NCBI GenBank assembly: GCA_036736205.1
Contig: DAINMX010000002.1
Span: 6,001-70,000, forward strand
Reading direction: 5' to 3'
Source: Myxococcota bacterium
GTDB taxonomy: Bacteria; Myxococcota; XYA12-FULL-58-9
Length of the DNA: 64,000 nucleotides
This document shows, piece after piece, positions 1 to 27,686 of this stretch. A program made the translations under genes and the position numbers. The first letter of the stretch is position 1. Every line of letters begins with the position of its first letter. The notes under the pieces are model-generated. The model was given only the letters and a program-made list of their open reading frames with translations, ran no database searches and was not told the DNA's origin.

Positions 1-162
1 TTTGCTGGTGAGCGTCAACACCACTCGAGCGACTGCGTTCTGGAAGCCGAAGGAGTTGTTCTTGAGCGTTTCGTCCACAATCTGTTGTGCTGTCATCTCC
101 GCGGCATCCGCACGACTACCGAAAAACAAGACAACAGCAAAGACCACACTGAGCTTACTCAT
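1..162 (-). CDS. Partial CDS (N-terminal 54 aa; continues beyond window start): exported LolA-like outer-membrane lipoprotein-sorting family protein
   Basis: Reverse complement of 1-162 gives MSKLSVVFAVVLFFGSRADAAEMTAQQIVDETLKNNSFGFQNAVARVVLTLTSK. It has a signal peptide and resembles the N-termini of LolA-like/DUF4292 proteins. GGAG sits 7 nt upstream of the ATG at 162-160. This gene is not in the ORF track because its stop lies outside the window. Confidence 0.45.
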   Translation of the reverse strand, partial: MSKLSVVFAVVLFFGSRADAAEMTAQQIVDETLKNNSFGFQNAVARVVLTLTSK

Positions 163-196: not shown

Positions 197-2182
197 TCAG
201 ACCGACTCATCGTCTGTGTCTCCCAAGCTCTCTTGGCCACTCTTCTCCGCATCAACCGAAGAATCCTGAGAACCGAAATCGAGAATCTTCGAACTGCCAA
301 CGTACGCCTTCGTCTCGTAGGCGGTGATCTGACCAATGCGCCTGACAATCTGCGCCATTCTGTCCGTCTCCCGATAGATTACATCGACGGGCTTCCGGTT
401 CGCATCTCCCTCAGGGATGCGACGGCGCAACATTTCCGCATAACCGAGAATTGACGTCAGAGGCTGATTGAGCTCGTGAGCCGTGGCACCGGCGAGTTCC
501 ACAGCGACGACCTGCCGCTCAGTGTTCTTGAGCCGTCGTTGCACCTGACTGAGCTTCTCCTCCATCTTCAACAACTCACGCAGATCGGTAAAAATACCGA
601 CGGTGGCGATCTCTCGCTCTCCCTCGTAGATCACCGACGCTGTGAGATTCACCGGCACGAGGATCCCATGCTTGGACACCAAGTCTTTGCGGGTCATCTC
701 CAAACGCCCCGCACCACCAAATGCCTCCGAACGCAACCGGCGCATAACGTCGCGGGCTTCCCCGGGTGGATACAATCGCGCCACATTCATCTTGCCCACC
801 ACGTCGCGGGCCGAGTAACCGAGAAAATCTTCGGCAGCCCGATTGAACAGGATGATGCGACCATTGATATCAGCGGCGACAATTGCGTCAACGGAGCTCT
901 GAATAAGGTTCTCGAGAAACTCTTTGGTTTGACGCAACTCTGTTTCGATCTCTCGCAATTCCGTCACATCACGAAAACTCACGAGGACACCGTTTGGCTG
1001 TTCCAACGCTCGAATCGCCGCAGAAATGACAATCTCCTGCTCACCCTCAACGGGAACCAAGAGGTCGATATAACCGTACGAGTCACCGACCTGGTCCCCG
1101 CGAATCGCTCGACGTGCAAGAACGTGCGAATCTGCGTTCAACAGCTCGACAAACCGTTTGCCGCCGAGTTCCCCCACCTCGCACCGGAGGATAGAGCCCG
1201 CGGCCTCGTTGGCATAACGGATCACTCCATCATCGTCTGTGACGACGATGCCATCGTTGGCTTGGGCGAAAAAATTGGAGAACTGCTGAAGTCCGGCAAC
1301 GCGTTCATCGGCCTCTGCCTTCTTGCGACGCAACGCTCGATGTTCACTGAGCAACGTATCCTGCTCCAACGCTGCACCAATGGCGACCGAAGTAACCGCT
1401 GCGATGAGCTTTCCCATATGCATGAGCCGCTCTTCGACGCTTCCGAGTGGCTGACTGTCCCTCAGAAACAATGCGCCAACGACCTCGTCTTTGTGCAGCA
1501 GTGGAAACAGCACCGATGCCCGGGGCGTCTGTTTGGCATGTTCGAGCTTGCTGCGCACGCCCGATAGAAGAGTATCCCCGAGCACGTCGGTGATCACCAA
1601 TGGTTCGTGTGAGCCCATCACCGCTCGCAGTTCAGGATAGTCGTCGACGCGAATAACCAGGTTGTCGATCAAAGACTCCTCGTGCTCGGCCACGACAAAA
1701 GCGATTTCATCCCCGGGTTTGAAGAGCACAACGGATACCCGATCGATACTGAACAGCTCGGATAACCTAAGGACTGCAGTGCACAAGACCTCGCCGAGCT
1801 CCGGATGCGAATTGATCTCGGTGATCAGACTTACCAGACCATGGTGAATCTCTGATTGTGTCGCGTTGGCTTCGGCCAGCTCGAGGTCTCGGGACCAACG
1901 AGAAACGCAATGGTCGAGATGTGCTTCACCCATCGCGACAGCATCAAATCCGGCAGCCACACAATCGCTAACCCTCTTCTCATCGAGGGCGGGCAACCAC
2001 GCCATGAGTTGTACGTCGACATAACGAGCCCGTAGCCGCTCAACCAACGCGGCCGAGTGCTCGAACGGGACGGCGACGATGATCAGACGAGCGCCGACGG
2101 GAAGGGCGTCTTCATCATCGTATGCGCGTATCCCTCGGTGGATGATCGAACCAAGGGCAATGATTGCAGCGTCTCCCTTCAT
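197..2182 (-). CDS. Signal-transduction protein: receiver-like N-term, GAF, two PAS domains, HisKA dimerisation/phosphoacceptor domain; no HATPase_c catalytic domain
   Basis: 661-aa ORF. An H-box (ELAGATAHELNQPLTSILGYAEML) lies near the C-terminus, followed only by a ~70-aa acidic/Ser tail. GAF-like and PAS-like segments (DGIVVTDDDGVIRYAN..., VDAIVAADINGRIILFNRA...) are visible. The stop at 197 lies just upstream of the next gene's start at 162, so an ATPase domain cannot be hidden by a frameshift. Confidence 0.7.
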   Translation of the reverse strand: MKGDAAIIALGSIIHRGIRAYDDEDALPVGARLIIVAVPFEHSAALVERLRARYVDVQLMAWLPALDEKRVSDCVAAGFDAVAMGEAHLDHCVSRWSRDLELAEANATQSEIHHGLVSLITEINSHPELGEVLCTAVLRLSELFSIDRVSVVLFKPGDEIAFVVAEHEESLIDNLVIRVDDYPELRAVMGSHEPLVITDVLGDTLLSGVRSKLEHAKQTPRASVLFPLLHKDEVVGALFLRDSQPLGSVEERLMHMGKLIAAVTSVAIGAALEQDTLLSEHRALRRKKAEADERVAGLQQFSNFFAQANDGIVVTDDDGVIRYANEAAGSILRCEVGELGGKRFVELLNADSHVLARRAIRGDQVGDSYGYIDLLVPVEGEQEIVISAAIRALEQPNGVLVSFRDVTELREIETELRQTKEFLENLIQSSVDAIVAADINGRIILFNRAAEDFLGYSARDVVGKMNVARLYPPGEARDVMRRLRSEAFGGAGRLEMTRKDLVSKHGILVPVNLTASVIYEGEREIATVGIFTDLRELLKMEEKLSQVQRRLKNTERQVVAVELAGATAHELNQPLTSILGYAEMLRRRIPEGDANRKPVDVIYRETDRMAQIVRRIGQITAYETKAYVGSSKILDFGSQDSSVDAEKSGQESLGDTDDESV

Positions 2183-2946
2183 GGGTTCGTGTCCCCCTCG
2201 AAACCATACGCCCGCAAGACATTGGGACGGGAATCGAATCGACGGCTCCCTGCCCCGACACCTCGGAGCCTGGCATCACCGCAGAGATCGTCCCGGTAGC
2301 TGGTACAAATCTCTGCGATCACCGCTATGCCGGTCGGCGTAATCGTCTCACCCACCAGAGGTACGTCGACCAATGGCACGTTGGCCCGCGCGGCGATCTC
2401 CCGCACAGCTGGCACCGGACAATTTAACACGCCATGCGCCGTTGAGACCGTACCGCTTCCACTCGGCAGCGGCGCGCAACTCACCCGAGGCGTTCCAAGG
2501 CTGTGGAGCGCCACCGCTATCCCCAACACATCCAATATCGAGTCGAGTTGACCAACTTCGTGCAGGTGCACTTCGTGCGGTCCATCGGTGCCATGCACAG
2601 CCGCTTCAGCCTCGCCCAGGCGGACAAAGATTCGTCGTGCAAGTGCAAGGGCCGCCGGCGGCACGTCCGCGGTGGCTAGAATCTCAAACACATCGGCCAG
2701 ATGACGATGGTGTGGCTCAACAGAGCGAGGAATGGACCGTACGTGCAAAGCCGTTTCGCCATCCACCTCCACGGGCTGCACAATGAGCTCGAGGCCGTCT
2801 ATTTCGAGACTTTTGATCGCGTGCTGAACCACACTCTCCGCGCCGAGATCGCACAACGCACCCAACAACATATCCCCGGCCACTCCGCCCACTGGCTGAA
2901 AATGGAGACGCCTGAGGCGGGGTACACGACTTCTCATGGTCGCCAA
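2179..2946 (-). CDS. LarC N-terminal-domain (DUF111 / nickel-pincer cofactor nickel-insertase LarC1-like) protein, lacking the LarC C-terminal domain
   Basis: 255 aa. FQPVGGVAGDMLLGALCDLG...HHRHLADVFEIL...HLHEVGQLDSILDVLGIAVAL...GSGTVSTAHGVLNCPVPAV matches the LarC/DUF111 N-domain motifs (SGISGDM-LGAL-DLG, HH-H--H, HFHEVGA-DSIVDIVG, GSG-V-TAHG-LPVPAPA). Start and stop overlap the neighbouring genes by 4 and 13 nt. Confidence 0.55.
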   Translation of the reverse strand: MATMRSRVPRLRRLHFQPVGGVAGDMLLGALCDLGAESVVQHAIKSLEIDGLELIVQPVEVDGETALHVRSIPRSVEPHHRHLADVFEILATADVPPAALALARRIFVRLGEAEAAVHGTDGPHEVHLHEVGQLDSILDVLGIAVALHSLGTPRVSCAPLPSGSGTVSTAHGVLNCPVPAVREIAARANVPLVDVPLVGETITPTGIAVIAEICTSYRDDLCGDARLRGVGAGSRRFDSRPNVLRAYGFEGDTNP

Positions 2947-3533
2947 CCGCCCGCACCAGCCATTTGCGCGGCGGCCTGATTGTCGACGACAACAAGCAGG
3001 CGGCCCGCGAACCCAGCTGCAATATCGGCGAAATGGGTCGTCACCACAGTCGCGTCTCCGACACGCTTTTGCACGACGGTATGAAGCACCCCGTACTCAA
3101 AGTCGGGCGGGCTTGGTATGAGATCGCCACGAACGAGACGACCGAGCGCCCCAAGAAACGCACAAAACATGATATTGGCTGTCTCCAACAGCGCGCTCTC
3201 TTCGAGAGAACCTCTCACAATGGCGTCAACCGAACAGTGAGTCAGAGTCGAGGCAAGCTTGCATGCCGACGCTTCGTCGAAAACGGCAAGCAGGCAGCAG
3301 GGAATCTCCCCCTCGACACCCAGCCGTATGGCAATCCCTCGTCGCTGCAGATCTGCGAAGTCCGACAATGCGTCTGCCTCAACCACTTGTGGGACATCCG
3401 GAACAATGCGACCGCCGCCGAGCAGTTGTACCAACGAGGAAAGGGCACTACCGCTGCCAATGTTGACCAACTCGCAGAGAGCATCCCGGACAACTTCTCC
3501 ATTGGCGACTGCTGTGTGTTTCATGCTGCCCAC
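2934..3533 (-). CDS. cheC: CheC-family chemotaxis protein phosphatase (CheC/CheX/FliY fold)
   Basis: 199 aa. ELVNIGSGSALSSLVQLLG matches the CheC consensus E-(L/I)-G-N-I-G-x-G-x-A-A-x-x-L-S-x-L-L. It overlaps the cheA stop by 13 nt. Confidence 0.6.
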   Translation of the reverse strand: MGSMKHTAVANGEVVRDALCELVNIGSGSALSSLVQLLGGGRIVPDVPQVVEADALSDFADLQRRGIAIRLGVEGEIPCCLLAVFDEASACKLASTLTHCSVDAIVRGSLEESALLETANIMFCAFLGALGRLVRGDLIPSPPDFEYGVLHTVVQKRVGDATVVTTHFADIAAGFAGRLLVVVDNQAAAQMAGAGGWRP

Positions 3534-5446
3534 CGAGATCGCAACGCCTTGGGAATATCCAAAATCAGAATCGGTTCACCGTCCCCGAGAATGGTCGCTC
3601 CTGAGAACCAGTCCATTCGGTCAAGTGGATCGCCCAAGGGTTTGACAACAACCTCGTGATAACCGACCACCCTGTCAACTGCCACAGCGGCAAGGTCACG
3701 GCCGTCCTCCATGAGAACAGCTTGCTCTGGCGGGTGGGTTGCCCGCAATCCCAATAGCGTCCCCAAGTTGAAAATGGGTGCCAACGCATGCCTGAAACTC
3801 AAATAGGTGTTTCCACCGGCTTCCTGAATGGTATCGTCACCGGTCTCCCTGACGGCAACAACTTTGGCAACCGGCAACGCGAACAATCTGCCACAGGATT
3901 CAACCAAGAGAACATTGATGATTGCCACGGTGAGCGGCAATCGAAACAGGAAGCGTGTGCCAGACCCAAAGGTAGACTCTATGTCGAGTGTGCCGCCGAT
4001 GGCCTCAATCTTGGCGCGAACGGCATCCATGCCCACCCCACGTCCAGAGAGATCACTCACCTCCGCCTTCGTCGAGAAACTGGGGAGACAAATGAGAAAG
4101 TAGCAATCCCTTGAGCTCATAGCCTCTGCTTGCGCCTCACTGACGAGACCGAGTCGCACCGCACGTTCCCGCAGGACATCGGGATTGAGCCCACGCCCAT
4201 CGTCCTCGATGATGACAACAACAGTGTCCCGATCCCTCGTCGCAGATATGCGCACTTTCGCAATCGGAGGCTTGCCCGCCGCTTCGCGTTCCTGGGCACT
4301 TTCGATGCCGTGATCCAAAGCGTTTCGCAAGGTATGCACAAAGGGCTCATCGAGGTTCTCGAGAATCGCTCGATCCAGCTCAATCTCCGACCCTTCAATC
4401 TCGAGCTCCGCCTCCTTGCTGAGCGAATGCGCGAGATCACGAACCAGGCGGGGATATCTGTCGGTGAGATTACGCATGGGCGTCATCCGCACGGCCATGA
4501 CCTGACCGCGAATCTCACGAATGGTCTTGCCGAGCGCGTCCAAAGTGGTGTGCAGCTCTGGACGAGGCTGATCGGACAAAAGGCTTTCGAGTCGCTCTCG
4601 CAGAATGAAGAGCTCTCCGACGTTATCAATAAGCGTATCCAGTATGTCAGTGCGCACCCGAACGGTGGTGCTCCTCTTCGCTTCCGCGACGGGCTCCGTG
4701 GTCGCTGACTCTGGTGCGGGTTCTGCATTGGCCACCACGGTGCCCACGGTTACTGCAGCGACCTCGCCCACCTCAAGCACCGCGGCACGCAGCTCGTCGT
4801 CGGTCGCCATTGCCTCAACAGTGAAGCGTGCGTGACCACCCACTTGGCCGCCGCGAATCTCCTCCATGCTTGGCGTCGAATCGACAACGCGTCCGAGGGT
4901 CTCCAATCGACGGTGCACCATGAAAAGGCGAACCGCTGGCGTCTTGCACGCATCATCGATGAGGACGTCAATGGAAAGGTGATTCCTCGTCGCTCCTTCA
5001 GAAGGCACCCTCGCCACTGTCACGGTGGATTCAGAACCGGCCGCCGTTGACTTCTTCGCGAGCATTGGCACCTGGGCACCCGCATTGTTGAGCTCCGTGA
5101 GCAACTCACTGTGCGCGGGAATCGCCTGGTCATTGGCCACTGCCTCAACCTGTTGGGCAAGACCATCAACGCCGCGCAACAAAAGATCGACAATGGAGCG
5201 TTCGAAGGCGCGTTTCTCTGCGCGTCCGTGGGAAGCCACGTCCTCCATCTTGTGCGCGAGCGACGCAATCGGATCGAAACCCATGGATGCCGCCATTCCC
5301 TTAATCGAATGGAAGCGTCGGAAAATCTCTTCGATGATCGGTACGGGCTCACTCGTTGATTCGATCTGAACGAGCAACCTCGAAAGGTCAGACAAATGCT
5401 CACGGCTCTCCTCGATGAAGAGCGCCTTGTATTTCTCCATGTCCAT
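3521..5446 (-). CDS. cheA: Chemotaxis histidine kinase CheA (Hpt/P1, dimerisation, HATPase, C-terminal CheW-like P5)
   Basis: HPt motif FRRFHSIKGMAASMGF; ATPase boxes HTLRNALDHGIE, IEDDGRGL, SGRGVGMDAV; C-terminal CheW-like segment. Start placed at MDMEKYKALF (5446) because the ORF's 5' extension would overlap cheY. Confidence 0.9.
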   Translation of the reverse strand: MDMEKYKALFIEESREHLSDLSRLLVQIESTSEPVPIIEEIFRRFHSIKGMAASMGFDPIASLAHKMEDVASHGRAEKRAFERSIVDLLLRGVDGLAQQVEAVANDQAIPAHSELLTELNNAGAQVPMLAKKSTAAGSESTVTVARVPSEGATRNHLSIDVLIDDACKTPAVRLFMVHRRLETLGRVVDSTPSMEEIRGGQVGGHARFTVEAMATDDELRAAVLEVGEVAAVTVGTVVANAEPAPESATTEPVAEAKRSTTVRVRTDILDTLIDNVGELFILRERLESLLSDQPRPELHTTLDALGKTIREIRGQVMAVRMTPMRNLTDRYPRLVRDLAHSLSKEAELEIEGSEIELDRAILENLDEPFVHTLRNALDHGIESAQEREAAGKPPIAKVRISATRDRDTVVVIIEDDGRGLNPDVLRERAVRLGLVSEAQAEAMSSRDCYFLICLPSFSTKAEVSDLSGRGVGMDAVRAKIEAIGGTLDIESTFGSGTRFLFRLPLTVAIINVLLVESCGRLFALPVAKVVAVRETGDDTIQEAGGNTYLSFRHALAPIFNLGTLLGLRATHPPEQAVLMEDGRDLAAVAVDRVVGYHEVVVKPLGDPLDRMDWFSGATILGDGEPILILDIPKALRSRWAA

Positions 5447-5459
5447 CGGAGGCTGAACC

Positions 5460-5843
5460 TCAGGTGGAGCCGCGGGCCCCCAGAACCTTGAGAACCACCC
5501 GTTTGACGTCATCGGGTTTGAATGGCTTGACGATAAAGTCCGCTGCGCCAGCCTCAATAGCTTCCATGACCAGCGATTCTTGACCGAGCGCGCTGCACAT
5601 GATCACCACCGCGTCTTTGTCCAACTCGACGATCTCCTTGGTGGCCTCGATACCACTCTTGAACGGCATGACGATGTCCATGGTGGTCAGGTCGGGTTTC
5701 AGCTCTCGGTACTTCTCGACCGCCTCGACGCCGTTTGCCGCTTGACCTACCACCTCGAACTCATCACCTGCGAATATGTCGATAATCATGTTGCGCATGA
5801 AGATGGCGTCGTCAACGACTAGAACTCGCGTCTTGCTCATCAA
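5460..5843 (-). CDS. cheY: CheY-like single-domain response regulator
   Basis: 127 aa. VLVVDDAIFMRNMI...DLTTMDIVMPFKSGIEATKEI...VIMCSA...DFIVKPF is a typical receiver domain with the phosphoacceptor Asp and the T/K residues. Confidence 0.9.
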   Translation of the reverse strand: MMSKTRVLVVDDAIFMRNMIIDIFAGDEFEVVGQAANGVEAVEKYRELKPDLTTMDIVMPFKSGIEATKEIVELDKDAVVIMCSALGQESLVMEAIEAGAADFIVKPFKPDDVKRVVLKVLGARGST

Positions 5844-6367
5844 TGGACTCCTTGGCGCACCTGTTGGCCAGCGCCAAATTCACGGATCAGTCTGTCGAGC
5901 AAGTGCTCAACATGAATGATATTAATCAACCGCTGGCTGTGCTGCAAAACCCATTTTACACATGGGCCGGTCGACACATCCGCACTGCTCAATTCCCCAG
6001 ACGGGAGAATACTGTGGACTCGGCTTACGTACAATCCAACATTCCCCTTGGCTAACTGCCCCTGCCGCAACAACAGCACACGGGTATCTGGGCCTGGCAT
6101 CGCCGGCACATTGTTGACACCCAATATAGGGGCGGGATTCACCACGGTCACTATCCTGCCATGAAAGTTCATAATTCCCAAGACAACTGTGGGTGCCAAA
6201 GGCACCGGAGAAATAGTCCCAGGTTCAGCTACTTGGAGCAGTTGGGCGACCTCGATGCCGAACACCCCGCGCCGTCCATCCAAAACAGGAGGGTCCCTAT
6301 GCCCGACAGAAGGGCCCAGTTCAAACACGAGGACGGGTCCCCAGCTCTTCTGCTTCTCTGGGCTCAT
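5840..6367 (-). CDS. cheW: CheW coupling protein
   Basis: 175 aa with CheW-like fold motifs ([52 protein letters not shown]). ATGA overlaps with both neighbours. Confidence 0.85.
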
Positions 6368-7701
6368 TGGCCGTCGCGGCCCGGCGAACGCTCAGCGGCG
6401 CCCAGGCGGAAACGGGTGACCACAGCTTCGAGCTCGTGGGATAAGTTGGTGAGCTCGACAGCGCTCGACGCCATGGCCTGCATCGAAGCCGACTGTTTGT
6501 CGATCGCCTGAGACACTTGCAGAGTGGTCGTCGCATTGGAGACTGCCACCGCCGAGATGTTCTCGATGGCCTTGACCATTTCACCGGCACCCTCGAGCTG
6601 CTCACGGGTCGCCCGGGTGATCTCGCTCACCACGTCCGCGCCCTTCTGCGCTGTGATTGAGATGTTCTCCAGCGACTGTATGATCGTATTCATGTCTTCG
6701 CGGCCTTCGGCGAGTTCCTTTGTCGACTCGCTCATTGCAACCACCGCGGAGACCGATTCGCTAAGATTCTCGTGGATGAGCGCGGAAATCTGATCGGCGC
6801 TCTTGGCGCTGTTCTCGGCGAGCTTACGAATCTCGTCGGCAACCACGGCAAAACCCCGACCATACTCACCGGCCCGGGCTGCCTCGATGGCGGCATTGAG
6901 TGCGAGGAGGTTCGTCTGTTGCGAAAGCTTGGTAATCACCTCGACGATGTTACCGATCTCCTTTGACTTCTCGCCGAAACGAACGACGCGTGTCCCTGTG
7001 GCCTCAACCTTCTCGAAGACCATGCGCAACTTGTCGACCGCGAGCTTGCCCACCTGGCTGCCGGATTGCGCCGCGGCGGCGGTCTCTCCCGACGCCACCG
7101 CCGCGTCCTCCGCAGAGCGGGCGGTACTCTCGATCCCAGCCGCAATCTGGGAAATAAGTTTCGATGCTTTCGCAACCAGTTCCGCTTGGAGCTCCGCTCC
7201 ATGCCCAATTTTATCGATGGAAATGGTGACTTCTTCGGTGGAGGCGTTTACCCCTTCTGCGGTGCCAGACAGACCCTTGGCACTTTCGGCCACCGCCCGT
7301 GATGTCCGCTGTATGTGAGCCACCAACTCGCGAAGATTCTCGAGCATGTAGTTGATCGAATTGGCGAGATTGTCGACCTCCTCGGGCGCGGATTTCGGCC
7401 GTTGCAAACGTGCATGCTGCGACAGGTCACCACGGGACACGCGGCTCGCGAACTGGGCGAGGTTACGGATCTCACGGGAGAGGGGACCTGCAAGATAACC
7501 GCCCCCAACTACGCCGAGAAGCAGTGCTCCACAGCCAGCGCCAACCCAGGTTGCCCACCGACTGTCGGTCAACGCTTCAGCGCCGAGTGTCACCACTGCA
7601 CTGGCCATGGAGATACCCACGAAGCCGAGTGCAAGTTTAAAACGGAGAAGTCGAACCACCGGGCAATACTGTGGCAAAAAGATCCCTAGGTCAAACCCCA
7701 A
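6364..7701 (-). CDS. Methyl-accepting chemotaxis protein (two TM, HAMP, MCP signalling domain)
   Basis: 445 aa. The N-terminus has two hydrophobic segments flanking a short loop, followed by a HAMP-like linker. The highly conserved MCP hairpin [31 protein letters not shown] is present. Confidence 0.85.
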
Positions 7702-7826
7702 CAGTCGGCGAATCGACTTGCGACGACAGGCCGCTGGTGTAACCTACCCCCCTTGGGATTGGTCGCTGGGATGCATTCGAAAAATGCACCACCCCTACAC
7801 GGGATTGGACGAATGGGCCTGAAGCC

Positions 7827-9689
7827 ATGATGACGAGCAAACAATTGATTGCCTTTGTGGTCTTGGTTCTGTGCGCAGCGTGCGAGCCGGAGAACCTGTC
7901 GAGACAACAGGCCAAAATCGCCCTGACGCCACGCCCTACGGCGACGCAGACGGCGATGAACGATCCGGCGGGCATCGATTGTGGCCAGGTAACAGTCCAC
8001 GGTTTGGACATCGCGACCTTCCGCATCGATAACCTCGGCAGCGCAACGCTCGAAATTGAATCCACCAGGATAGCGTCACAGTCGGGAGGCACTTTTCGGG
8101 TGCAATCCGTGAGCGATCGGGTGACGGCGTACCACACAGACGACGAGGCTGGGGAGTTGGTGATCAGCCTCACTCCCAATGCGGATCAGGAGCCCGCAGA
8201 GGCGACGATCGAGCTCTTGACCAACAGCGGCGAAAACGGCGACGAGACGGCTCACGTCATCGTTCGGGCAGTCGGTCTCTACATCGGCGATCCCAACATT
8301 GAGGTCTGCTACGATGGCACTTGTTACCCAGGCGCCGAAGATTGCAGTGATCGTGGTGATGGAAAGAATATCTGCCAGCTGCCAACTCTCGATTGGGGCA
8401 ACGTCTCCCTCGGCAAAACCTCGACCCGCGAGATTCGGCTGCGCAATGTCCCCAGAGCGGGTACGTGTCTACCGCCGCCGGGAGCCGCGGAGTGCACCCG
8501 AGTTTGCCGATTGACGTTCGACCGCGACCCGAGCCATCAGAACCTCGGATTTGGCTTTGTCCCAGACAACACCGGGTTCGAGTTCCGGGGCAACATCGAA
8601 TTGCCACACGCCCTCGACGTGGCAAACCCGCAATGCGGTCTGGTCAACGAGGAACCGCTGTTGATTCGCTTCAACTCGGGAAACGAAGAAGGTATCGCGA
8701 CCAGCACCCTGGTGATCGAAAACAACGACCCTGATGCCCCACTCATCGAGATCCCGTTGTCAGCCCATGCACGACAGGCCCCAGTCGCGGTGGCACAAAT
8801 TCGTGCCTGCAGCGGCGAAACGGTCCCAAACTGCACTCCCGACGTCACCGACATCCGCCCCCTCGACCGCGTCTATCTCACGAGTGTTGCAAGCTTTGAC
8901 ACCAGCACCCCGCCGCGGGATCTCATCGCCTGGGAGTGGACTGTCGAGGAGTCCCCGCAAGGCGCGAACCCCGATGACTTCGCTCTGCAAGGCACCGATA
9001 CCGAGGTCATGTCCATGTGGCTGCCCCTCGCGGGCCGCTACGTCGCCAAGCTACGAGTCACCAATGACCTCGGCATCAAGAGCGGAATCACCCCCACTGC
9101 CCTGGTCGAGTTCTACGCCATCCCCAACAGCCGGGTGCACATTCAGTTGGTGTGGGATCACCCAACAAACGATTTGGACCTGCACGTGACCTCGACCGCA
9201 ATGGGTGACTTGGTCTGCGAGGCACCCAATGACTGCTTCTGGGGCAACTGCAAACGACAGTGTCTCGAGCCAGACTCAGAGTGTCGGGAACCACCGGTCT
9301 GGTTCGCGTCCGCCAATGCTCTCGAGGGCCCAAACCCGCGCCTCGACATCGACGACACCAACGGCCTTGGCCCTGAAAACACCAACATCGACGAACCATC
9401 TCCCGGCAAATTCCGCATCTATGTCCACTATTACACGCTCATCGATCGCAGCACCGATCCTACCCAGGCGATCATCCGCATCTACATCGACGGACAGGCG
9501 GCCGCAGAATACCGACGGGTGCTGCGGCCGGATGATCTCTGGCGGGTGGCTGAAGTTGAATGGACCATGGACATCGACGGCTCCGAGCAGGCACATATCA
9601 ACATGGCCACGAGCGATGGCCTCGGCCAGGGAGCGCTAAAGAAGATGTACAACTGCTCCCATCCGTTTGACTTTGGTGAGGTGTTTTGA
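7827..9689 (+). CDS. Secreted (signal peptide / possible lipoprotein) cysteine-containing protein, paralogue A of a tandem pair; ASH/DUF1573-like beta-sandwich N-region, conserved ~200-aa C-terminal module
   Basis: The signal peptide MMTSKQLIAFVVLVLCAAC is visible. The C-terminal module IHIQLVWDHPTNDLDLHV...DIDDTNGLGPENTNIDEP..GKFRIYVHYY is shared almost motif-for-motif with the next gene. Confidence 0.7.
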   Translation: MMTSKQLIAFVVLVLCAACEPENLSRQQAKIALTPRPTATQTAMNDPAGIDCGQVTVHGLDIATFRIDNLGSATLEIESTRIASQSGGTFRVQSVSDRVTAYHTDDEAGELVISLTPNADQEPAEATIELLTNSGENGDETAHVIVRAVGLYIGDPNIEVCYDGTCYPGAEDCSDRGDGKNICQLPTLDWGNVSLGKTSTREIRLRNVPRAGTCLPPPGAAECTRVCRLTFDRDPSHQNLGFGFVPDNTGFEFRGNIELPHALDVANPQCGLVNEEPLLIRFNSGNEEGIATSTLVIENNDPDAPLIEIPLSAHARQAPVAVAQIRACSGETVPNCTPDVTDIRPLDRVYLTSVASFDTSTPPRDLIAWEWTVEESPQGANPDDFALQGTDTEVMSMWLPLAGRYVAKLRVTNDLGIKSGITPTALVEFYAIPNSRVHIQLVWDHPTNDLDLHVTSTAMGDLVCEAPNDCFWGNCKRQCLEPDSECREPPVWFASANALEGPNPRLDIDDTNGLGPENTNIDEPSPGKFRIYVHYYTLIDRSTDPTQAIIRIYIDGQAAAEYRRVLRPDDLWRVAEVEWTMDIDGSEQAHINMATSDGLGQGALKKMYNCSHPFDFGEVF

Positions 9690-9727
9690 TCGCAGGCACT
9701 CCGCCGGCTTCATTGCACCCCAAGGTA

Positions 9728-9738
9728 CCGTCCTATAG
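9728..9738 (+). promoter_or_regulatory. CCGTCCTATAG element (candidate -10 region) 57 nt upstream of the paralogue-B start; identical 11-mer recurs upstream of ftsE
   Basis: Exact 11-nt identity between 9728-9738 and 15448-15458, both shortly upstream of plus-strand gene starts. Promoter function is inferred only. Confidence 0.25.
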
Positions 9739-9794
9739 AGGTGTTTGATTCTGTGGGGTTACCTGCAACCATGACAACAGCGTCGGAGGTATGG

Positions 9795-11705
9795 ATGCGG
9801 CGTCTCCTTAGATTGACAACGGCACTGGCGGTTTTGCTCACGATCGGTTGCAGCGACGACACCTTCACAACCAGCACCGCTCGATTGGACATGCTCGCGT
9901 ACACCCCGGGCCAAGGTTACGGCTGGGTCGACGATGACCAAAGAACCATCGACCTCGGTGATGTCCCCGTCCACGCCACCAAGTGGGCGATCTGGAAACT
10001 CGAAAATCCCAGCCCCATCCCTCTGTTGGTTCGTGAGGTCACCTTCAAGAACGGCGTTGGCCGACGTTGGGGTCCCGCCCGCGCCGTGGTGCTCGAACAG
10101 GCACCCGACCCATCCCGGCCCCTAAACGACAACGCCCGCGCTGATGGCAAAGGCGGAGCTGAACCACCGTTTGCCGTGCCCGCATACGCCGGCGTCGCAC
10201 AAGGACAACCAACCTACCTGCTCGGCGTCGAATACTCCCCGATTGAGCTTGGTGCCCATTCGGTCACTGCGGTCATTCACACCGATGCCGAAAACGCCGG
10301 CCTCGATGGCACCATCGACGCGCTCATTCGCGCCAACGCCGTGTACACGGGAGAACCCGACATCGAAGTAGAATACGCGGGGTTTCGTGGTCCCAATCCA
10401 AGCACCGATTGCACCACGGATGGCATCTGCACCATTCCGGCGAACCAAGGCGTCGATTTTGGCAACATTGGCCTGGGTGGGAGCAGCTCGATCCGATTGC
10501 TGCTGCGCAACCAGTCGGAGTGCACACCCTACGAGGGCACCGACCCCTGCTCTCTGTGCAAACTGACCGTCGCAGCCGACCCTACCCGCCAGAACATCGG
10601 TTTCGGTTTCAAGCCCGGCACCAACGACGCGGAGGTGTTCAAGTTCGCCGGCTCGACCGCGGTGCCCTTTGAAATCCGCCAGCGCAACGTCGCCTGCGGC
10701 GAGAGCGGTGAGCAACGCATCGCCCTGGAGTTCAACGCTCCTACACATGAGGAGGAGTACAGCGCGATCGTCGTCCTCGAGTCCACCGACCCAAATGAGC
10801 CACTCATTGAAATCCCCATTCGTGGCGCAGCCCGCAACGCGCCAGTCGCCATCGCCAAGTTCCGCGAACGTGACCCCACAAACCCGAGTGCACCATTCAC
10901 CGATCCCAGTGGCATCGAGCCGTTGGAGTGGGTCTACTTCGATGGGCGCGACAGTTGGGATCCCGTCAATCCGAACGATCCCGGAAGAATCGCGGGGTAT
11001 CAGTGGGAAATCCTCGAGTACCCTCCCGGCGCGAACCCCGATGACTTCGACCTCCAAGGGATCTATTCGAGCGTCTTTGCCTTCTGGTTGCCGCTCGCGG
11101 GTCACTACGAGGCCCGGTTGCGGGTGTGGAATGTCGATGGCATTGAGAGCGGCGACACCCCCGCAGCGCGTAAGGAGTTCGACGTCATTCCCGGAGACGC
11201 CATACACGTGCAGTTGGTTTGGGATAACCCCACCAACGACCAGGATTTGCACCTGACCTACCTCACCCAAGACGATCGCGTGTGCAACAAGCCGTGGGAT
11301 TGCTACTACGGCAACAGAAAGCCCTTGTGGTTCTCTAGCCCTGCCGGCGAAGGCCCCAATCCTTCATTGGATATCGATGACACCCAGGGCCTCGGGCCCG
11401 AGAACATCAACATCGATGACCCCGAGACTGGGGTCTATCGTGTCTATGTCCACTACTTCGGCGATTTCTCCGGTGGTGCCGACACGCCGACCCGGAACAC
11501 TGTACGAATCTACCTCAACGGTCGCCAAGAGGCCGAGTATCGACGCACCCTCGATAACGAAAAAGACATTTGGGCGGTTGCAGACATCACCTGGCTACCC
11601 AATGGCACCGGTTACGCCACCCCGTATCCACCGGATGCCCAAGGGCAAATCGGCGCAACCGACGTGATGACAAGTTGCACATCGCCCGGATACACATTTC
11701 CCTGA
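9795..11705 (+). CDS. Secreted lipoprotein-like protein, paralogue B of the tandem pair
   Basis: The ORF track starts at a GTG at 9741. The preferred start is the ATG at 9795 (MRRLLRLTTALAVLLTIGCSDD, a lipoprotein-type signal) with GGAGG 5 nt upstream. It shares VYTGEPDIEVEY..., PLIEIPIRGAARNAPVAIA, IHVQLVWDNPTNDQDLHL and DIDDTQGLGPENINIDDPETGVYRVYVHYF with the preceding gene. Confidence 0.7.
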   Translation: MRRLLRLTTALAVLLTIGCSDDTFTTSTARLDMLAYTPGQGYGWVDDDQRTIDLGDVPVHATKWAIWKLENPSPIPLLVREVTFKNGVGRRWGPARAVVLEQAPDPSRPLNDNARADGKGGAEPPFAVPAYAGVAQGQPTYLLGVEYSPIELGAHSVTAVIHTDAENAGLDGTIDALIRANAVYTGEPDIEVEYAGFRGPNPSTDCTTDGICTIPANQGVDFGNIGLGGSSSIRLLLRNQSECTPYEGTDPCSLCKLTVAADPTRQNIGFGFKPGTNDAEVFKFAGSTAVPFEIRQRNVACGESGEQRIALEFNAPTHEEEYSAIVVLESTDPNEPLIEIPIRGAARNAPVAIAKFRERDPTNPSAPFTDPSGIEPLEWVYFDGRDSWDPVNPNDPGRIAGYQWEILEYPPGANPDDFDLQGIYSSVFAFWLPLAGHYEARLRVWNVDGIESGDTPAARKEFDVIPGDAIHVQLVWDNPTNDQDLHLTYLTQDDRVCNKPWDCYYGNRKPLWFSSPAGEGPNPSLDIDDTQGLGPENINIDDPETGVYRVYVHYFGDFSGGADTPTRNTVRIYLNGRQEAEYRRTLDNEKDIWAVADITWLPNGTGYATPYPPDAQGQIGATDVMTSCTSPGYTFP

Positions 11706-11725
11706 CCAACGATCGTGAGGACCCT

Positions 11726-14700
11726 ATGGCAACTTTGACGCGTCTTTCTGTCGTGGCCGCACTGGCCCTGACATCCATCGCCTGTGAGCGCACTTCCAAA
11801 CCCCGAGACGAATGCGAAGTCAACGAGGACTGCAATGGCCAGTATTGCTTGCAGGGAGTGTGCGTCGAGTGCTCGGAGGACAAGCAGTGCGATAAGCATC
11901 GCATATGCGCCACCAACACCTGTGAGCTCCTCGGCGCTGAGCGCGAGAATCAGGCCCAGAACGCCCACGGCAACTGGCGCGGCACCCCTGGGCAACCAGG
12001 CTACGATCCCATCGACACGTGCACCATAAATGAGGACTGTTCCTTTGGCGAGCTCTGCAACCCCTTCACCGCCGGTTGTATCCGCGCCGTCGATTTTACC
12101 GAGACCTGCGACGACGGTACATGCTCAGAGACCGGCCCCAATGGCGAGACCCTCGCTTGCGAGCCACAGAGCGACACCTGTTATCCAGCCCCACGCTGCA
12201 CCACCGACCGGAACTGCGCCGGCTACGATGAGTTCGTCTGCGACCCTGGCAGCGGGGTGTGCCAGTTCCAACAGCGAGAGTGTACACCGCCAACGGCGAG
12301 CGAAACCCAACCATGTCCCTTCTCGCCGCGGCTAACCGACGAGTGCACGGTCCCTGGGCTTTTTTGCTCGCCCTTGGGCCGCTGCGTGCAGTGCACCTGC
12401 AACCTCGATTGTGATGCCAATGGTGGCTTGCCTGTTTGTTACGCTCCCACCGGCCGTTGTGTACGTGAGGACTTCTGCACACGCGCGGGCGAGTGTACCC
12501 CAGACAAATGTGACGGCCCGACCTGTTCCTGTGACCGACGCAACCAGATGTGCCAACCCTACTGCGATCAGGCGGACGACTGCGGCGACAACCAATACTG
12601 CGATACACTGGACAATGTCTGTCGACCCGAGGTTGAGCGCCCTTGCCTTACGGACTCCCTCGAGGGATCACCCAACAACGACCAGAGTAGCAGCGCCGCC
12701 GACTTGCCACTGCCCGCCATGGGTGAAAGCGTCGAGATCCCCGCCGATAGCGACCACGTCCTTTCCCTGTGCGACACCGATACCTACACCGATCACGACG
12801 ACTGGTATGCCTTGGATCTTTCGGCCGGTGACGCCATCCGTATCATCGGTAGCAGCAACGATGGCCTCATAGCCGTCATGACCGCCTTTGCCGCCGATGG
12901 ATTCACCGTCCTCGACACCGGTGCCATCAATCCTATCGTTGGAGATCTATTGCACATCACCGCCGGATTTGACGCGGTCTATTGGGTGCACATCGCCTCT
13001 GGCTACGATGTCGTCGCCGGCGTGCAGTCCACAGGCACGTATCGTTTGAGTGTGACCTTAACCCGCGGCCAGAGCTGCAGCGACGCCTTCGAGGTTAACC
13101 TTGGCCGCAACGACACCCCTGCCGTGGCCACCGTCCTCAACGACGAAACCGCAGGCATCCCCGCCGACTGCACGGGCACTCTCGGTGCTCAACAAATGAT
13201 TGAATGCAAGGACGGCGTTAACATGTGTCTCGGCGACGTCGACTACTATCTCATCAACGCGAGCGCCGGTGCCACCGTGTCCGCAACCATTGACAGTTTT
13301 AGCAACAACCTCGATCTGCACTTGTATGGTCCATTCGCTCACGGCGAGGTTCCATCCTTGTCACCACAAGCCGACTATTCCACCGGACCCGGCGTAAGCA
13401 GCGAAGCCGTCATGGCAGCGACCCGCGCCGCGGGCTCATTTCTGCTCCGGGTGAGCCGCACGAGCGGCGAGGCGAGTGTTTACAGCCTCGCCGTCGAAGT
13501 ACTGGCCGGACCCGTTTGCAGCGAAGACCGCTTCGATGACGAGTCGGGTGAGTCGGGCAGCACCGGCGACCCCGCCTCCATGTCGCCATTCATCGAAGAC
13601 CCCGCTAGCCTAAACGACACCCTTACCACCGCGACGTTCATTGATGTCGACCCGAGTTCGGCTGCAACACTCACGGTCGCCACGGATGAAACCACGCCTC
13701 TCACACTGTGCGGCGGGGACGTCGACTGGTTCCGACTCGGTGCCCAGGGGACCGACCGCCTCGTCAATGTCGATGCCGGCCTGCGAATCACCGGACACCT
13801 GACGGTGTCGAGCCTCGAGGAGGGCGACAAAGTGTTCGTGAGCGTCGGCAGCTCGAGTGAAGCGATGCAGCTCGACGAAGACGACTCCACGGCGTTCACC
13901 ATCTCGGTGACAAATGGTGGCCCCCTGTACCTGCGTGTCTACGGTGCACCGACAAACATCGGCGCGGTGGCCTACACCATTGAGATTGGGACGATCGCGC
14001 CCGAGTGCGCCCCCGACAACCGCGGCGATACCACAACATTGAGTAATGACGACCCCAACGATGCCTATGCGCTCATCGCCAGTGATGGTTGGCCCACGAT
14101 CTTGGGCGACCCTGCTCACGAAGAGACCGCCTTGTCGTTGTGTACCCGCCTCGACGGCACATCGTTGGTCCGCGACATCGATTGGTACACCATCGGTGTG
14201 CCAGCGGGCTCCGAGGTCGCCGCGACCGTGCACTACGATGCCAGCGAATCGGAAGCCAACCTGACGTTGTTCGCATCCTCCGTCCTCAACGCCACAAATC
14301 TCGACTCGCCGAACGAGATCCCCAACACCGGCCTGCTTGTCGAGAGCGTCGTCAACGGGCTCGGCACGGAGCGCGCCCGAGTCAACGCCACGGGGACCAT
14401 CTACATTCGCGTCGGCAACGAAAGCGGTTGGCCCATCTCCCATTACAGCCTCGAAGTGCGCCTGCTGCCCCTCGCTTGCACCGAGGACGAGCACGAACCC
14501 AACCAGTCCTGGGATCCAGGCGTTGCCATGCCGTTGTCGATGGCGAGTGTAGAGCCGCCTATCGAGACCGGCACCCTCGACGAGCTCAGCATCTGCACGG
14601 GTGCCGACCGGGATTGGTACACCGTGCCACTCGGCATTGGCGACGAGATCACCGCGACGTTGTTCTCCCATCCCACAGAGGGAGAGATCGATTTCTATCT

Positions 14701-15244
14701 GTACCGTCCCGGCCCCGCGGGCGTACAAGATCTGAACACCTTCATTACCCACAAGGCGGTCACATCGGAGGTCACAACCCTCAACCACAAAGTCGCCGCG
14801 AGCGGCCCCGTGGGCGACTATCTCCTGCAGGTCCGCCCCGAGGGATCCGGCCCCTTTGCCAACCGTTACGCCCTCGAAACCCGTGTCGCCCGCGAGTGCA
14901 TCGATGACAGCTTTGAGGATTTCTCCCTCCTCGTGCTCGGTAACCACTACCCGGAGCTGCAATTGTGTGGGGACGAGGATTGGTTCACCTTCGTCCCAAA
15001 CGGCGCCGGGGATGTCACCGTCTGCGCCCTCTTCTCCCACGCCGCGGGCAACATCGATCTGTTTGTCTACGACGAACTCGACCCGCCATCAATTATCCGT
15101 GGTGCGCAGAGCCTGACCGATGATGAGCGCGCCTCTTTCCAGGCTGTGGCAGACGTGAGCTACTACGTCCGCGTGTTCACGCCGACCCCGGTCAACACCG
15201 CCTACGAGCTGCATGTGCTGTGGGGCGACGTCCCCTGCCCATAA
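11726..15244 (+). CDS. Large secreted protein (1173 aa): N-terminal Cys-rich modules followed by about six pre-peptidase C-terminal (PPC)-type domains
   Basis: Start set at the ATG at 11726 (MATLTRLSVVAALALTSIAC) with GAGG 7 nt upstream; the ORF-track 5' extension overlaps the previous gene. The Cys-rich region resembles CNGQYCLQGVCVECSEDKQCDKHRIC. Repeated PPC signatures are DHDDWYALDLSAGD, GDVDYYLINASAG...LDLHLYG, GGDVDWFRLGAQG, RDIDWYTIGVPAG, ADRDWYTVPLGIGD...IDFYLY and GDEDWFTFVPNGAG...IDLFVYD. Confidence 0.75.
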   Translation: MATLTRLSVVAALALTSIACERTSKPRDECEVNEDCNGQYCLQGVCVECSEDKQCDKHRICATNTCELLGAERENQAQNAHGNWRGTPGQPGYDPIDTCTINEDCSFGELCNPFTAGCIRAVDFTETCDDGTCSETGPNGETLACEPQSDTCYPAPRCTTDRNCAGYDEFVCDPGSGVCQFQQRECTPPTASETQPCPFSPRLTDECTVPGLFCSPLGRCVQCTCNLDCDANGGLPVCYAPTGRCVREDFCTRAGECTPDKCDGPTCSCDRRNQMCQPYCDQADDCGDNQYCDTLDNVCRPEVERPCLTDSLEGSPNNDQSSSAADLPLPAMGESVEIPADSDHVLSLCDTDTYTDHDDWYALDLSAGDAIRIIGSSNDGLIAVMTAFAADGFTVLDTGAINPIVGDLLHITAGFDAVYWVHIASGYDVVAGVQSTGTYRLSVTLTRGQSCSDAFEVNLGRNDTPAVATVLNDETAGIPADCTGTLGAQQMIECKDGVNMCLGDVDYYLINASAGATVSATIDSFSNNLDLHLYGPFAHGEVPSLSPQADYSTGPGVSSEAVMAATRAAGSFLLRVSRTSGEASVYSLAVEVLAGPVCSEDRFDDESGESGSTGDPASMSPFIEDPASLNDTLTTATFIDVDPSSAATLTVATDETTPLTLCGGDVDWFRLGAQGTDRLVNVDAGLRITGHLTVSSLEEGDKVFVSVGSSSEAMQLDEDDSTAFTISVTNGGPLYLRVYGAPTNIGAVAYTIEIGTIAPECAPDNRGDTTTLSNDDPNDAYALIASDGWPTILGDPAHEETALSLCTRLDGTSLVRDIDWYTIGVPAGSEVAATVHYDASESEANLTLFASSVLNATNLDSPNEIPNTGLLVESVVNGLGTERARVNATGTIYIRVGNESGWPISHYSLEVRLLPLACTEDEHEPNQSWDPGVAMPLSMASVEPPIETGTLDELSICTGADRDWYTVPLGIGDEITATLFSHPTEGEIDFYLYRPGPAGVQDLNTFITHKAVTSEVTTLNHKVAASGPVGDYLLQVRPEGSGPFANRYALETRVARECIDDSFEDFSLLVLGNHYPELQLCGDEDWFTFVPNGAGDVTVCALFSHAAGNIDLFVYDELDPPSIIRGAQSLTDDERASFQAVADVSYYVRVFTPTPVNTAYELHVLWGDVPCP

Positions 15245-26837: not shown

Positions 26838-27686
26838 TCAACGGCGAGAGAGCAGTCTGACCTCGATGATCGTCTCGCCAGCGCCGATGAAATCGCCGCT
26901 CTTGATAACGGCACGTCTGACTCTCTGTTGGTTGAGCACAGTGCCATTGACGCCGCCAAGATCAACCAATTCAATGGCGTCGCCAGCATCAACGAGAATG
27001 AAATGGCGACGGGACATCCGCATGTCACCAGGAATCGACACCTCGACGTTTTCCCCACGGCCAAAATCGATGGACTTGCCAGCCTTAAGCCAATGCCTTT
27101 GTCCCTTTGCAGGACCGCTAACCACGATAAGCTCGGCCGCGGCCACTTCACTGGTCGATTCTCGCCCGGGAGCGTCACCAACCCAGGTTGCAGCTTCACC
27201 GCCTGGCATTGCCGCTGCGGACATGGGCGAGTGCGGGACCTTGTAATGCTGCTCGATAGCCTGACGCACCTGGGTCGCAGTGCTCACCAACGGCCGCACC
27301 ACCATACCCGTTTTGAACTGCAGATTGTCGATGAGTTGAATGTTGGTGGGATCAGCCATGGCAAGAACCAATCGGCGACGATGCCCCTCGCGCTCCAGAC
27401 GCACTGGTATCATCAAGCTCGCAAACGCCTCCGAGACGCTGACGGTGCGCAGTGCCTCCTGTGTGGGCGTCGTGTGAATCAGATCAATCGCCGGCAGATG
27501 CAGTGCCCTTGACAGGACATCCAGAATCACATCCTCGGTGGTCAAACCGAGCTGCAGAATCACTTCACCTAGCTTGGGACGGCGGACCGCGTGGCGCTGA
27601 TGTTCCAGCGCTGCCTCGATCTGTTTGCGGGAGAGAACTCCCGCCTGCACCAACAGCTCTCCCAACCGAGCTCGCATCTCAACCAC
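26838..27686 (-). CDS. MshEN (T2SS-E N-terminal, c-di-GMP-binding type) domain fused to a C-terminal FHA domain
   Basis: RLGELLVQAGVLSRKQIEAALEHQ and KLGEVILQLGLTTEDVILDVLSRAL fit the two RLGxxLLxxGhhxxxxLxxxLxxQ MshEN motifs. The C-terminus (...GKSIDFGRGENVEVSIPGDMRMSRRHFILV...NGTVLNQQRV...) is a typical FHA domain. Confidence 0.75.
   Translation of the reverse strand: MVEMRARLGELLVQAGVLSRKQIEAALEHQRHAVRRPKLGEVILQLGLTTEDVILDVLSRALHLPAIDLIHTTPTQEALRTVSVSEAFASLMIPVRLEREGHRRRLVLAMADPTNIQLIDNLQFKTGMVVRPLVSTATQVRQAIEQHYKVPHSPMSAAAMPGGEAATWVGDAPGRESTSEVAAAELIVVSGPAKGQRHWLKAGKSIDFGRGENVEVSIPGDMRMSRRHFILVDAGDAIELVDLGGVNGTVLNQQRVRRAVIKSGDFIGAGETIIEVRLLSRR

Follow-up and report, generated by a model that had tools for sequence, protein, structure and literature searches.

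We describe here a two-gene module, consisting of a LarC1-only protein and a sensor without a kinase domain, that is attached to a chemosensory operon of the Dif type in an uncultivated Myxococcota lineage. The operon was found on the minus strand of a stretch of 64,000 nucleotides (nt) of a Myxococcota bacterium (assembly GCA_036736205.1, contig DAINMX010000002.1, positions 6,001 to 70,000), and this whole stretch is called the window below. The Dif-type system itself is known, and the LarC1/kinase-less-sensor module on it is new and had not been described. As an explanation of the operon as a whole, we favour a Dif-type operon carrying a LarC1/kinase-less sensor module that would act in phosphotransfer or as a phosphatase, and we give this explanation about an even chance of being right. 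Our confidence is high for the identities of the genes, and low to moderate for the mechanism.

Layout of the operon

Open reading frames (ORFs) and their translations were taken from the window, and domains were assigned using Pfam and NCBIfam profile searches. Seven consecutive genes on the minus strand, at positions 197-7701, encode a methyl-accepting chemotaxis protein (MCP), CheW, CheY, CheA, CheC, the LarC1-only protein, and a sensor with the domain order pseudo-receiver, GAF, PAS, PAS, and HisKA. An earlier note on this DNA had listed these seven chained genes with their domains, and all of them were recovered by the profile searches and by reading the junctions. Overlaps of 4 nt (ATGA) are present at four junctions (MCP/CheW, CheA/CheC, CheC/LarC1, and LarC1/sensor), as seen in the sequence and in the gene calls on identical contigs. 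The CheW/CheY junction is a 1-nt overlap, and the CheY/CheA junction is a 13-nt gap. The features are as follows:

7660-7826, no strand: divergent intergenic region, presumed operon promoter, between the MCP gene and the plus-strand lipoprotein gene at 7827-9689
6364-7659, minus strand: DifA-like MCP; GTG start at 7659 according to the gene callers, longest ORF to 7701
5840-6367, minus strand: CheW, DifC-like (Pfam CheW, E=5e-12); ATGA overlap with the MCP stop
5460-5840, minus strand: single-domain CheY, DifD-like (Pfam Response_reg, E=2e-26)
3521-5446, minus strand: CheA, DifE-like (Pfam Hpt-P2-dimerisation-HATPase_c-CheW)
2934-3524, minus strand: CheC-type CheY-P phosphatase, DifG-like (Pfam CheC, E=5e-9)
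2179-2937, minus strand: LarC1-only protein, 252 amino acids (aa) (Pfam Ni_insertion, positions 1-233 of 375; NCBIfam LarC1)
197-2182, minus strand: kinase-domain-less sensor, 661 aa (pseudo-receiver, GAF, PAS, PAS, and DHp, the last matched by HisKA)
1-162, minus strand: LolA-like gene (family of outer-membrane lipoprotein sorting); only its first 54 codons, for the signal peptide, lie inside the window; it starts at 162, 34 nt after the sensor stop

The longest ORF of CheA starts at 5557 and overlaps cheY, and the gene callers put the start at 5446. The earlier note had let the operon end with the LarC and HisKA genes. However, two further co-directional genes come after them. On identical contigs the LolA-like gene encodes 256 aa (PF17131, also known as DUF1329; E=3e-61), and on the full contig it is followed by a gene for a 529-aa protein without a Pfam match and then by convergent ETF genes. 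These LolA-like and 529-aa genes are located at L001:12021-14380. The co-directional unit is nine genes, not seven, and the two additional genes could be an envelope-related output or cargo of the operon.

The promoter of the unit is probably located in the region 7660-7826. A consensus scan, which is uninformative for this high-GC host, detected no sigma-70-like site in this region, and promoter-like or terminator-like sites inside the operon were not above the shuffled expectation.

The Che genes belong to the Dif kind

For comparison, we used the dif loci of Corallococcus coralloides DSM 2259 (L094), Myxococcus sp. XM-1-1-1 (L095), and Archangium minus (L096), with M. xanthus DK1622 itself left out. 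Orthology was called using best hits, synteny, and identity. Here and below, the loci compared (L-numbers) are partly related phylogenetically, and thus the counts are not all independent.

The MCP matches Pfam HAMP and MCPsignal (E=2e-39), and its signalling domain spans roughly 44 heptads. A hydrophobicity scan gave two transmembrane helices and a loop of about 10 residues. The MCPs at the DifA position in Corallococcus, Archangium, and Myxococcus share 46-50% identity with it over nearly the full length and have a matching topology with two transmembrane helices; that DifA has no periplasmic domain is taken from this topology scan. Meanwhile, CheY shares 81-83% identity with the CheY at the DifD position of the three Myxococcia genomes. 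The values are 41-43% for CheA with the DifE-position proteins, 32-34% for CheC with the DifG-position proteins, and 31-35% for CheW with the DifC-position proteins. Residues D11/D12, D56, and K106 of CheY are intact, the Hpt histidine of CheA is His46, and both phosphatase motifs of CheC (D/S-x3-E-x2-N-x22-P) are present, at residues 14 and 110.

Among the homologs of CheA, about 45 close uncultured relatives are followed by CheAs of Myxococcaceae, one of which is annotated as 'histidine kinase DifE [Corallococcus coralloides DSM 2259]' (E=6e-134, 43% identity). This annotated DifE, the nearest cultured relative that has been named, is located in a cluster of the form MCP-(DifB)-CheW-CheY-CheA-CheC, as are the corresponding CheAs of Myxococcus sp. 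XM-1-1-1 and Archangium minus. The order MCP-CheW-CheY-CheA-CheC on one strand is common to the window and to the dif loci of Corallococcus, Myxococcus, and Archangium. No difB is present between MCP and CheW in the window, where these two genes overlap by 4 nt. A 294-aa gene occupies the difB place in Myxococcus sp. alone; Corallococcus and Archangium have none there, and a gene at this place is therefore no universal feature.

Judged by identity, order, and best hits, the Che part is the ortholog of the Myxococcus Dif system (DifA/C/D/E/G), and it is an ordinary, further member of the Dif kind. Dif is among the best-studied chemosensory systems that do something other than steer motility. 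The suggestion in the earlier note that this is a chemosensory pathway with an alternative cellular function agrees well with this assignment. In M. xanthus, DifA, DifC, and DifE activate exopolysaccharide synthesis through the orphan receiver EpsW, and DifD and DifG form a phosphate sink (PMC12802240; PMC4671073).

A Pfam scan for the missing families was made in 48 further ORFs of at least 94 aa across the 64-kb window, and no CheR, CheB_methylest, or CheD was found, as the earlier note had reported. In addition, neither cheR nor cheB is present just upstream of 7701, where the divergently transcribed lipoprotein gene starts at 7827. The earlier note regarded the lack of adaptation enzymes as notable. 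However, it is a known property of Dif-type systems: the Myxococcus Dif cluster likewise has no cheR or cheB, and the window operon has no adaptation enzymes nearby because it is a Dif ortholog.

Compared with the Dif system of M. xanthus, the window operon is alike in gene order, in the MCP with two transmembrane helices and almost no periplasmic loop, in the lack of cheR/cheB in the cluster, and in its flanking frame (thiL upstream in sister loci and a larC-type gene downstream). In contrast, difB and larB are missing from the window operon, only the LarC1 part of larC is left, and the kinase-less sensor, the LolA-like gene, and the 529-aa gene are chained on. Furthermore, the window comes from an uncultivated lineage, and its CheA is only about 43% identical.

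The thiL-dif-lar neighbourhood

In Corallococcus and Myxococcus sp., difG is followed on the same strand by larB and a full-length larC (L094:4621-12939; L095:3771-13182), and the gaps after difG in Myxococcus are 25 nt and 6 nt. The first gene after difG in Corallococcus encodes LarB (274 bits against an NCBIfam cutoff of 175), and the second encodes a full-length LarC, in which LarC1 and LarC2 are both above the NCBIfam cutoffs. In Archangium minus, larB and larC are not at that place. On the other side, thiL is located upstream of difA in all three genomes. It is also upstream of the MCP gene in the sister loci L009, L013, L016, and L018 (in L008 thiL is fragmented), and it lies directly upstream of LarC1 where the che genes are missing (L014, L015, L100, and L101). 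Therefore, the LarC1 gene of the window occupies the position that it shares with larC of the Myxococcaceae dif locus. In view of the full-length larB-larC after difG in Myxococcus and Corallococcus, the LarC gene is no random addition to the operon.

Using tblastn, we found no coding sequence for LarC2 or LarB in the window or in 14 of the related loci, and the AIRC family was not among the Pfam matches of the window ORFs. In this lineage larB is gone from the locus, and LarC2 has been lost.

A literature search for MXAN_6688-6690, which we take to be the genes after difG of Myxococcus, brought up no paper that mentions them. The dif-lar neighbourhood exists in the model organism's own family and has been unnoticed so far. 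The presence of lar genes directly after difG both in Myxococcaceae and in a far more distant uncultured Myxococcota lineage is a new lead on Dif. The constant pairing of a stand-alone LarC1 domain with a sensor lacking its kinase domain is a second such lead.

The LarC1-only protein

The protein encoded after CheC scores 160.7 bits with NCBIfam LarC1 (cutoff 90) and matches Ni_insertion with E=4e-63. There is no NCBIfam LarC2 match for it, and it ends at profile position 233 of 375. The short form is common to about 68 database clusters, with lengths of 227-274 aa. The homology search showed a sharp drop between the short proteins (E<=1e-45) and the full-length LarCs of ~400 aa (E>=1e-42). 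When the LarC N-domains were placed in a neighbour-joining tree, the short proteins made up one cluster, and every full-length LarC, whether dif-linked or not, fell outside it.

LarC1 holds a nickel-binding histidine cluster, in which activity depends strictly on H108, H118, and H160 and moderately on H116, and an acidic pocket for the substrate activated with cytidine monophosphate (D15, R71, E104, E119, D124, D128, and E187); it has been called a new fold (PMC13510736). A profile of the short clade matched the LarC of M. thermoacetica (PDB 12bi) with E=1.8e-53, over the LarC1 part only. Nine residues of the window protein, E111, H115, H126, H168, D22, E127, D132, D136, and E197, are invariant in 42 clade sequences, in which 34 columns are invariant in all. 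They correspond to LarC E104, H108, H118, H160, D15, E119, D124, D128, and E187, respectively, and the equivalent of R71 is only mostly conserved in the clade. With this degree of conservation, LarC1 appears to be under selection. The AlphaFold2 (AF2) model of LarC1 is a compact domain (predicted local distance difference test, pLDDT, 94.8; predicted template modelling score, pTM, 0.92). A Foldseek search of this model against a PDB copy (to April 2026, predating the LarC structures) gave 0 matches at E<=0.001, and the best match had E=0.095. This result agrees with LarC1 as a new fold and gives no support to a kinase-like role.

Compared with LarC, the CTP-dependent nickel cyclometallase of L. 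plantarum and M. thermoacetica, the window protein has a homologous LarC1 domain with the equivalents of nine residues at which a substitution lowers LarC activity; three belong to the histidine cluster and six to the acidic pocket. However, it has no LarC2, which is the CTP-binding domain and hexamer core; there is no larB nearby, and its constant neighbour is a signalling protein rather than a lar gene. The protein is without the defining LarC2 domain and therefore should not be filed as a LarC enzyme.

One may still ask whether this is a conventional LarC that has been split and still makes the nickel-pincer nucleotide, with LarC2, LarB, LarE, and a LarA-type user elsewhere. The position after CheC would then be inherited synteny, and the sensor would be unrelated or merely regulatory. 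This would fit with the invariance of most residues essential for LarC activity, with the larB-larC genes after difG in Myxococcus and Corallococcus, which have no known link to Dif, and with L. plantarum, where LarC1 and LarC2 are in separate reading frames and are joined by a ribosomal frameshift (PMC13510736). However, CTP is bound by LarC2, and an altered LarC1-LarC2 linker lowers the activity below 10% (PMC13510736); LarC1 by itself would therefore hardly work well as a cyclometallase. Moreover, the tblastn search brought up neither LarC2 nor LarB, and the adjacency to the sensor described in the next section is unexpected for indifferent neighbours. We consider a split LarC unlikely.

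LarC1 and the sensor form a module

The sensor is the next gene after LarC1 in 17 of the 17 loci that have enough downstream sequence (the window, L007-L018, L097, L099, L100, and L106). The two genes usually overlap or lie within about 55 nt of each other, with a spacing of up to 167 nt in L010, and the numbers of database clusters are similar (about 68 for the LarC1-only protein and about 58 for the sensor). The genes upstream of LarC1 are as follows, in a tally that leaves out the upstream context of L106:

che genes: 12 loci (the window, L008, L009, L011-L013, L016-L018, L099, L103, and L104)
thiL: 4 loci (L014, L015, L100, and L101)
unrelated genes: 2 loci (L007 and L010)

Thus, at least five loci (L007, L010, L014, L015, and L100) have the pair without any che genes. 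Four che-linked loci with the pair (L013, L016, L017, and L018) have no CheC gene, and there CheA is directly followed by LarC1. The variable upstream context, the loss of CheC, and the strict pairing show that LarC1 and the sensor are linked more tightly to each other than either of them is to che. We concluded that LarC1 and the sensor are an obligate, autonomous two-gene module. The adjacency, often with the ATGA overlap, outlasts the loss of che. The earlier note had suggested that the output of the Che pathway may run through the HisKA protein; given the che-less pairs, the pair cannot simply be that output. No natural LarC1-HisKA fusion was found among the matches listed.

Downstream of the pair, the LolA-like gene is present in seven loci (the window, L009, L011, L012, L014, L015, and L106). 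The 529-aa gene follows in four (the full contig of the window, L009, L011, and L012), and the contigs of L014, L015, and L106 end after the LolA-like gene.

The relatives of the window locus carry the label Myxococcota. Thirteen contigs, among them records from ENA, NCBI, and JGI, encode exactly this 661-aa sensor. One of these contigs belongs to GCA_001798655.1, 'Deltaproteobacteria bacterium RIFOXYA12_FULL_58_15', a metagenome-assembled genome (MAG) from the Rifle aquifer. In dozens of lineages both truncated forms recur at 44-70% identity; their frames are intact, their functional residues do not vary, and their stop position is conserved. From the identical copies and the forms shared by the orthologs, the truncations are neither an assembly error nor recent pseudogenes. 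The two proteins foreign to canonical chemotaxis, to which the earlier note had drawn attention, are real and conserved. The same observations bear on the idea that both terminal genes are decaying, functionless remnants of a larC and of a histidine kinase gene. Both proteins are indeed shortened versions of two-domain proteins, and the locus has lost larB in comparison with Myxococcus. However, the conservation across lineages and the identical proteins on 13 contigs are contrary to decay, and we strongly disfavour this idea, to the point that it is hardly credible.

Two single loci show further peculiarities. In L008 (7461-9389), CheA is spread over three ORFs (Hpt, P2, and HATPase-CheW), through frameshifts or a real split. 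In L007 (690-5656), the genes divergent from the che-less pair encode a NiFe-hydrogenase large subunit (HoxH), an FlpD/ferredoxin protein, and a Ser/Thr kinase fused to a hydrogenase small-subunit domain (Pkinase and Oxidored_q6). This surrounding is nickel-related and is a single case.

The kinase-less sensor

HisKA matches the sensor with E=2e-12, and His569 in the HELNQPL box is invariant in 54 sequences. No Pfam match to HATPase_c was found in the window sensor, in which only 45 residues, predicted to be disordered, remain past DHp. These residues contain a conserved tail (IGQITxYETKxYVGxxKIxD) and then an acidic disordered end, and the complete orthologs all stop shortly after the conserved tail, without HATPase_c. 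The sensor family consists of 119 database clusters at E<=1e-20, of which about 110 are without HATPase_c, and the H-box and the tail are kept in all. In the AF2 model of the sensor, the DHp helices are at residues 535-588 and 596-619, pLDDT falls below 50 in the tail, and the N-terminus has an alpha/beta fold. The disorder of the tail in the monomer model suggests that it may be a docking motif. By its domains, the sensor appears not to be a kinase: it is without the defining ATPase domain of histidine kinases and has kept the phospho-histidine box.

The N-terminus of the sensor gave no Response_reg match in Pfam. It aligns with the true receiver of a Sorangium relative, and the DD, D, T, and K residues are replaced. 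This pseudo-receiver domain is absent in other members of the clade. Distant relatives in Sorangium and Polyangiales (annotated as 'PAS domain S-box protein') share 34-40% identity with the window sensor and have the same core, the HELNQPL box, and the tail; they are also without HATPase_c. The protein of Sorangium sp. So ce1036 (L091:10001-13224) has a canonical N-terminal receiver, whereas that of the window is dead; in the protein of a Polyangiales MAG (L092:10001-13483) the receiver residues are degenerate too. In these relatives a separate small HisKA+HATPase_c kinase gene comes directly after, and there are no LarC or che neighbours. In such a layout the DHp-only protein could be the intermediate of a phosphorelay.

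A different combination is seen at L093 (8512-12604). A 501-aa alanine-rich LarC-like protein extends there over the regions of both the LarC1 and the LarC2 profile, and its gene runs into the start of the gene for an 867-aa kinase-less sensor. The 195-residue extension of this sensor was considered as a degenerate ATPase domain and was rejected, as it is low-complexity, Pro/Ala-rich sequence without a Pfam match.

For Spo0B/ChpT-type phosphotransferases and for the isolated EnvZ DHp, the options are limited to taking up receiver phosphate, handing it on, or removing it. The window sensor seems to be like them in having a histidine-bearing helical hairpin without a working ATP-binding domain. 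However, a degenerate CA-like domain is still present in Spo0B and ChpT, and sensor domains are missing there, whereas the window sensor has a disordered tail of 45 residues, GAF and two PAS domains, and a dead receiver.

It could be supposed that LarC1 replaces the missing ATPase domain, as a new catalytic subunit that charges His569 from a nucleotide. LarC1 does lie at the partner position that is held by the HisKA+HATPase_c gene beside the Sorangium and Polyangiales relatives, and the LarC1 pocket of real LarC binds a cytidine dinucleotide intermediate (PMC13510736). However, it is LarC2, absent here, that binds and uses CTP. The high-confidence LarC1 model gave no significant match to a kinase, GHKL, or nucleotide-hydrolysing fold in the Foldseek search, and the degenerate partner in L093 speaks against catalysis at that locus. 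A replacement of this kind is highly improbable.

Alternatively, LarC1 may serve the maturation of its neighbour. The GAF domain or a PAS domain would receive nickel or a nickel-pincer-like cofactor from LarC1, which would make the sensor a metal-cofactor sensor (e.g., for redox or a small molecule). The catalytic-type residues kept in LarC1 fit an enzyme or chaperone, the pairing is strict with a protein of the GAF-PAS-PAS type, and one pair (L007) adjoins NiFe-hydrogenase genes. In addition, nickel-pincer cofactors are now known to be used by proteins unrelated to LarA (PMC13524815). However, a LarB that could provide the organic precursor is missing from the neighbourhood, the GAF-PAS-PAS core is present without a LarC neighbour in the relatives from Sorangium and Polyangiales, the LarC-like partner in L093 is motif-less, and no evidence points to a metal site in the sensor domains. 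A maturation factor is thus improbable in our view, more so than a split LarC, and it is still better placed than a replacement of the ATPase domain.

Proposed mechanism

We return to the explanation favoured at the outset, a Dif-type operon with a LarC1/kinase-less sensor module. By analogy with Myxococcus, the receptor-CheW-CheA complex would phosphorylate a downstream receiver, and the CheY/CheC pair would drain phosphate, without methylation-based adaptation. The DHp-only dimer would be incapable of autophosphorylation. Like Spo0B/ChpT or the isolated EnvZ DHp, the sensor may be a signal-regulated histidine phosphotransfer or phosphatase node that exchanges a phosphoryl group with a receiver, for which the DifD-like CheY is the candidate here and another receiver elsewhere. 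In this way the Dif pathway would gain a second sink or a relay branch, gated by the sensor. A role as relay or sink is consistent with the kinase neighbours in Sorangium and Polyangiales and with the four pair-keeping loci that lack CheC. LarC1 might be a partner subunit that binds nickel and/or a pyridinium dinucleotide-like ligand. A physical interaction of LarC1 with the sensor, the direction and partner of the phosphotransfer, and a link to polysaccharide control are presumed in this scheme.

Phosphotransfer to the HisKA protein, which the earlier note had put forward as a possible output, is a reasonable idea. The characterised output of Dif is the orphan response regulator EpsW, with CheY/CheC as the phosphate sink (PMC12802240; PMC4671073).

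Going further, LarC1 may have been recruited as a signalling subunit. Bound to nickel and/or a pyridinium-nucleotide ligand, it would control or mature the sensor, which taps the phosphoryl flow of Dif, and the metal or cofactor status would be coupled to the cell surface. We put this forward tentatively; it is doubtful as it stands and clearly less probable than the module in general, but it is preferred to a split LarC.

Several points weigh against the scheme. The pair is also che-less in at least five loci, and therefore its core function cannot depend on CheA/CheY. Meanwhile, the Dif system of Myxococcus works without such a pair. LarC1 keeps a near-complete set of catalytic residues, which argues for an enzymatic over a purely regulatory role, and the genome could hold genes for LarB, LarE, LarA, or a separate LarC2 at other places. 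The conserved tail is also present in the Sorangium relatives without a LarC neighbour, so it is not a LarC1-specific docking motif. In L093 the LarC-like protein has lost the GGxAGDM and the His/acidic motifs, yet it is retained beside the same sensor family. Finally, the tree of LarC N-domains is star-like outside the short cluster and did not resolve a descent of the short clade from the dif-linked larC.

If the pair works together, this would be the first role for a LarC domain outside the synthesis of the nickel-pincer cofactor. Furthermore, if the scheme is true, the sensor would be a natural, sensor-gated, kinase-less histidine phosphotransfer protein attached to a Che pathway.

Other features of the window

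Divergent from the MCP gene, three large consecutive genes of 620, 654, and 1224 aa are located on the plus strand at 7827-15244. They have signal- or lipoprotein-like starts, and their only Pfam match is a PPC domain in the third. The sister locus L009 (~55% identical) has two large genes without Pfam matches at the matching upstream position.

At 50534-53989 on the minus strand, a 1151-aa REC-PilZ protein has a C-terminal generic S-adenosylmethionine (SAM)-methyltransferase region. This protein was considered as a hidden CheR and was rejected, as it matches generic SAM-methyltransferase families only. It has a 4-nt overlap with a gene at 47979-50537 (minus strand), which encodes a HisKA-HATPase-REC-HD hybrid kinase of the HD_5/HD-GYP type, and the two form an unusual signalling pair linked to cyclic di-GMP. 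Further content related to cyclic di-GMP includes a GAF-GAF-GGDEF diguanylate cyclase at 38423-40648 (minus strand) and a protein with MshEN and FHA domains at 26838-27686 (minus strand).

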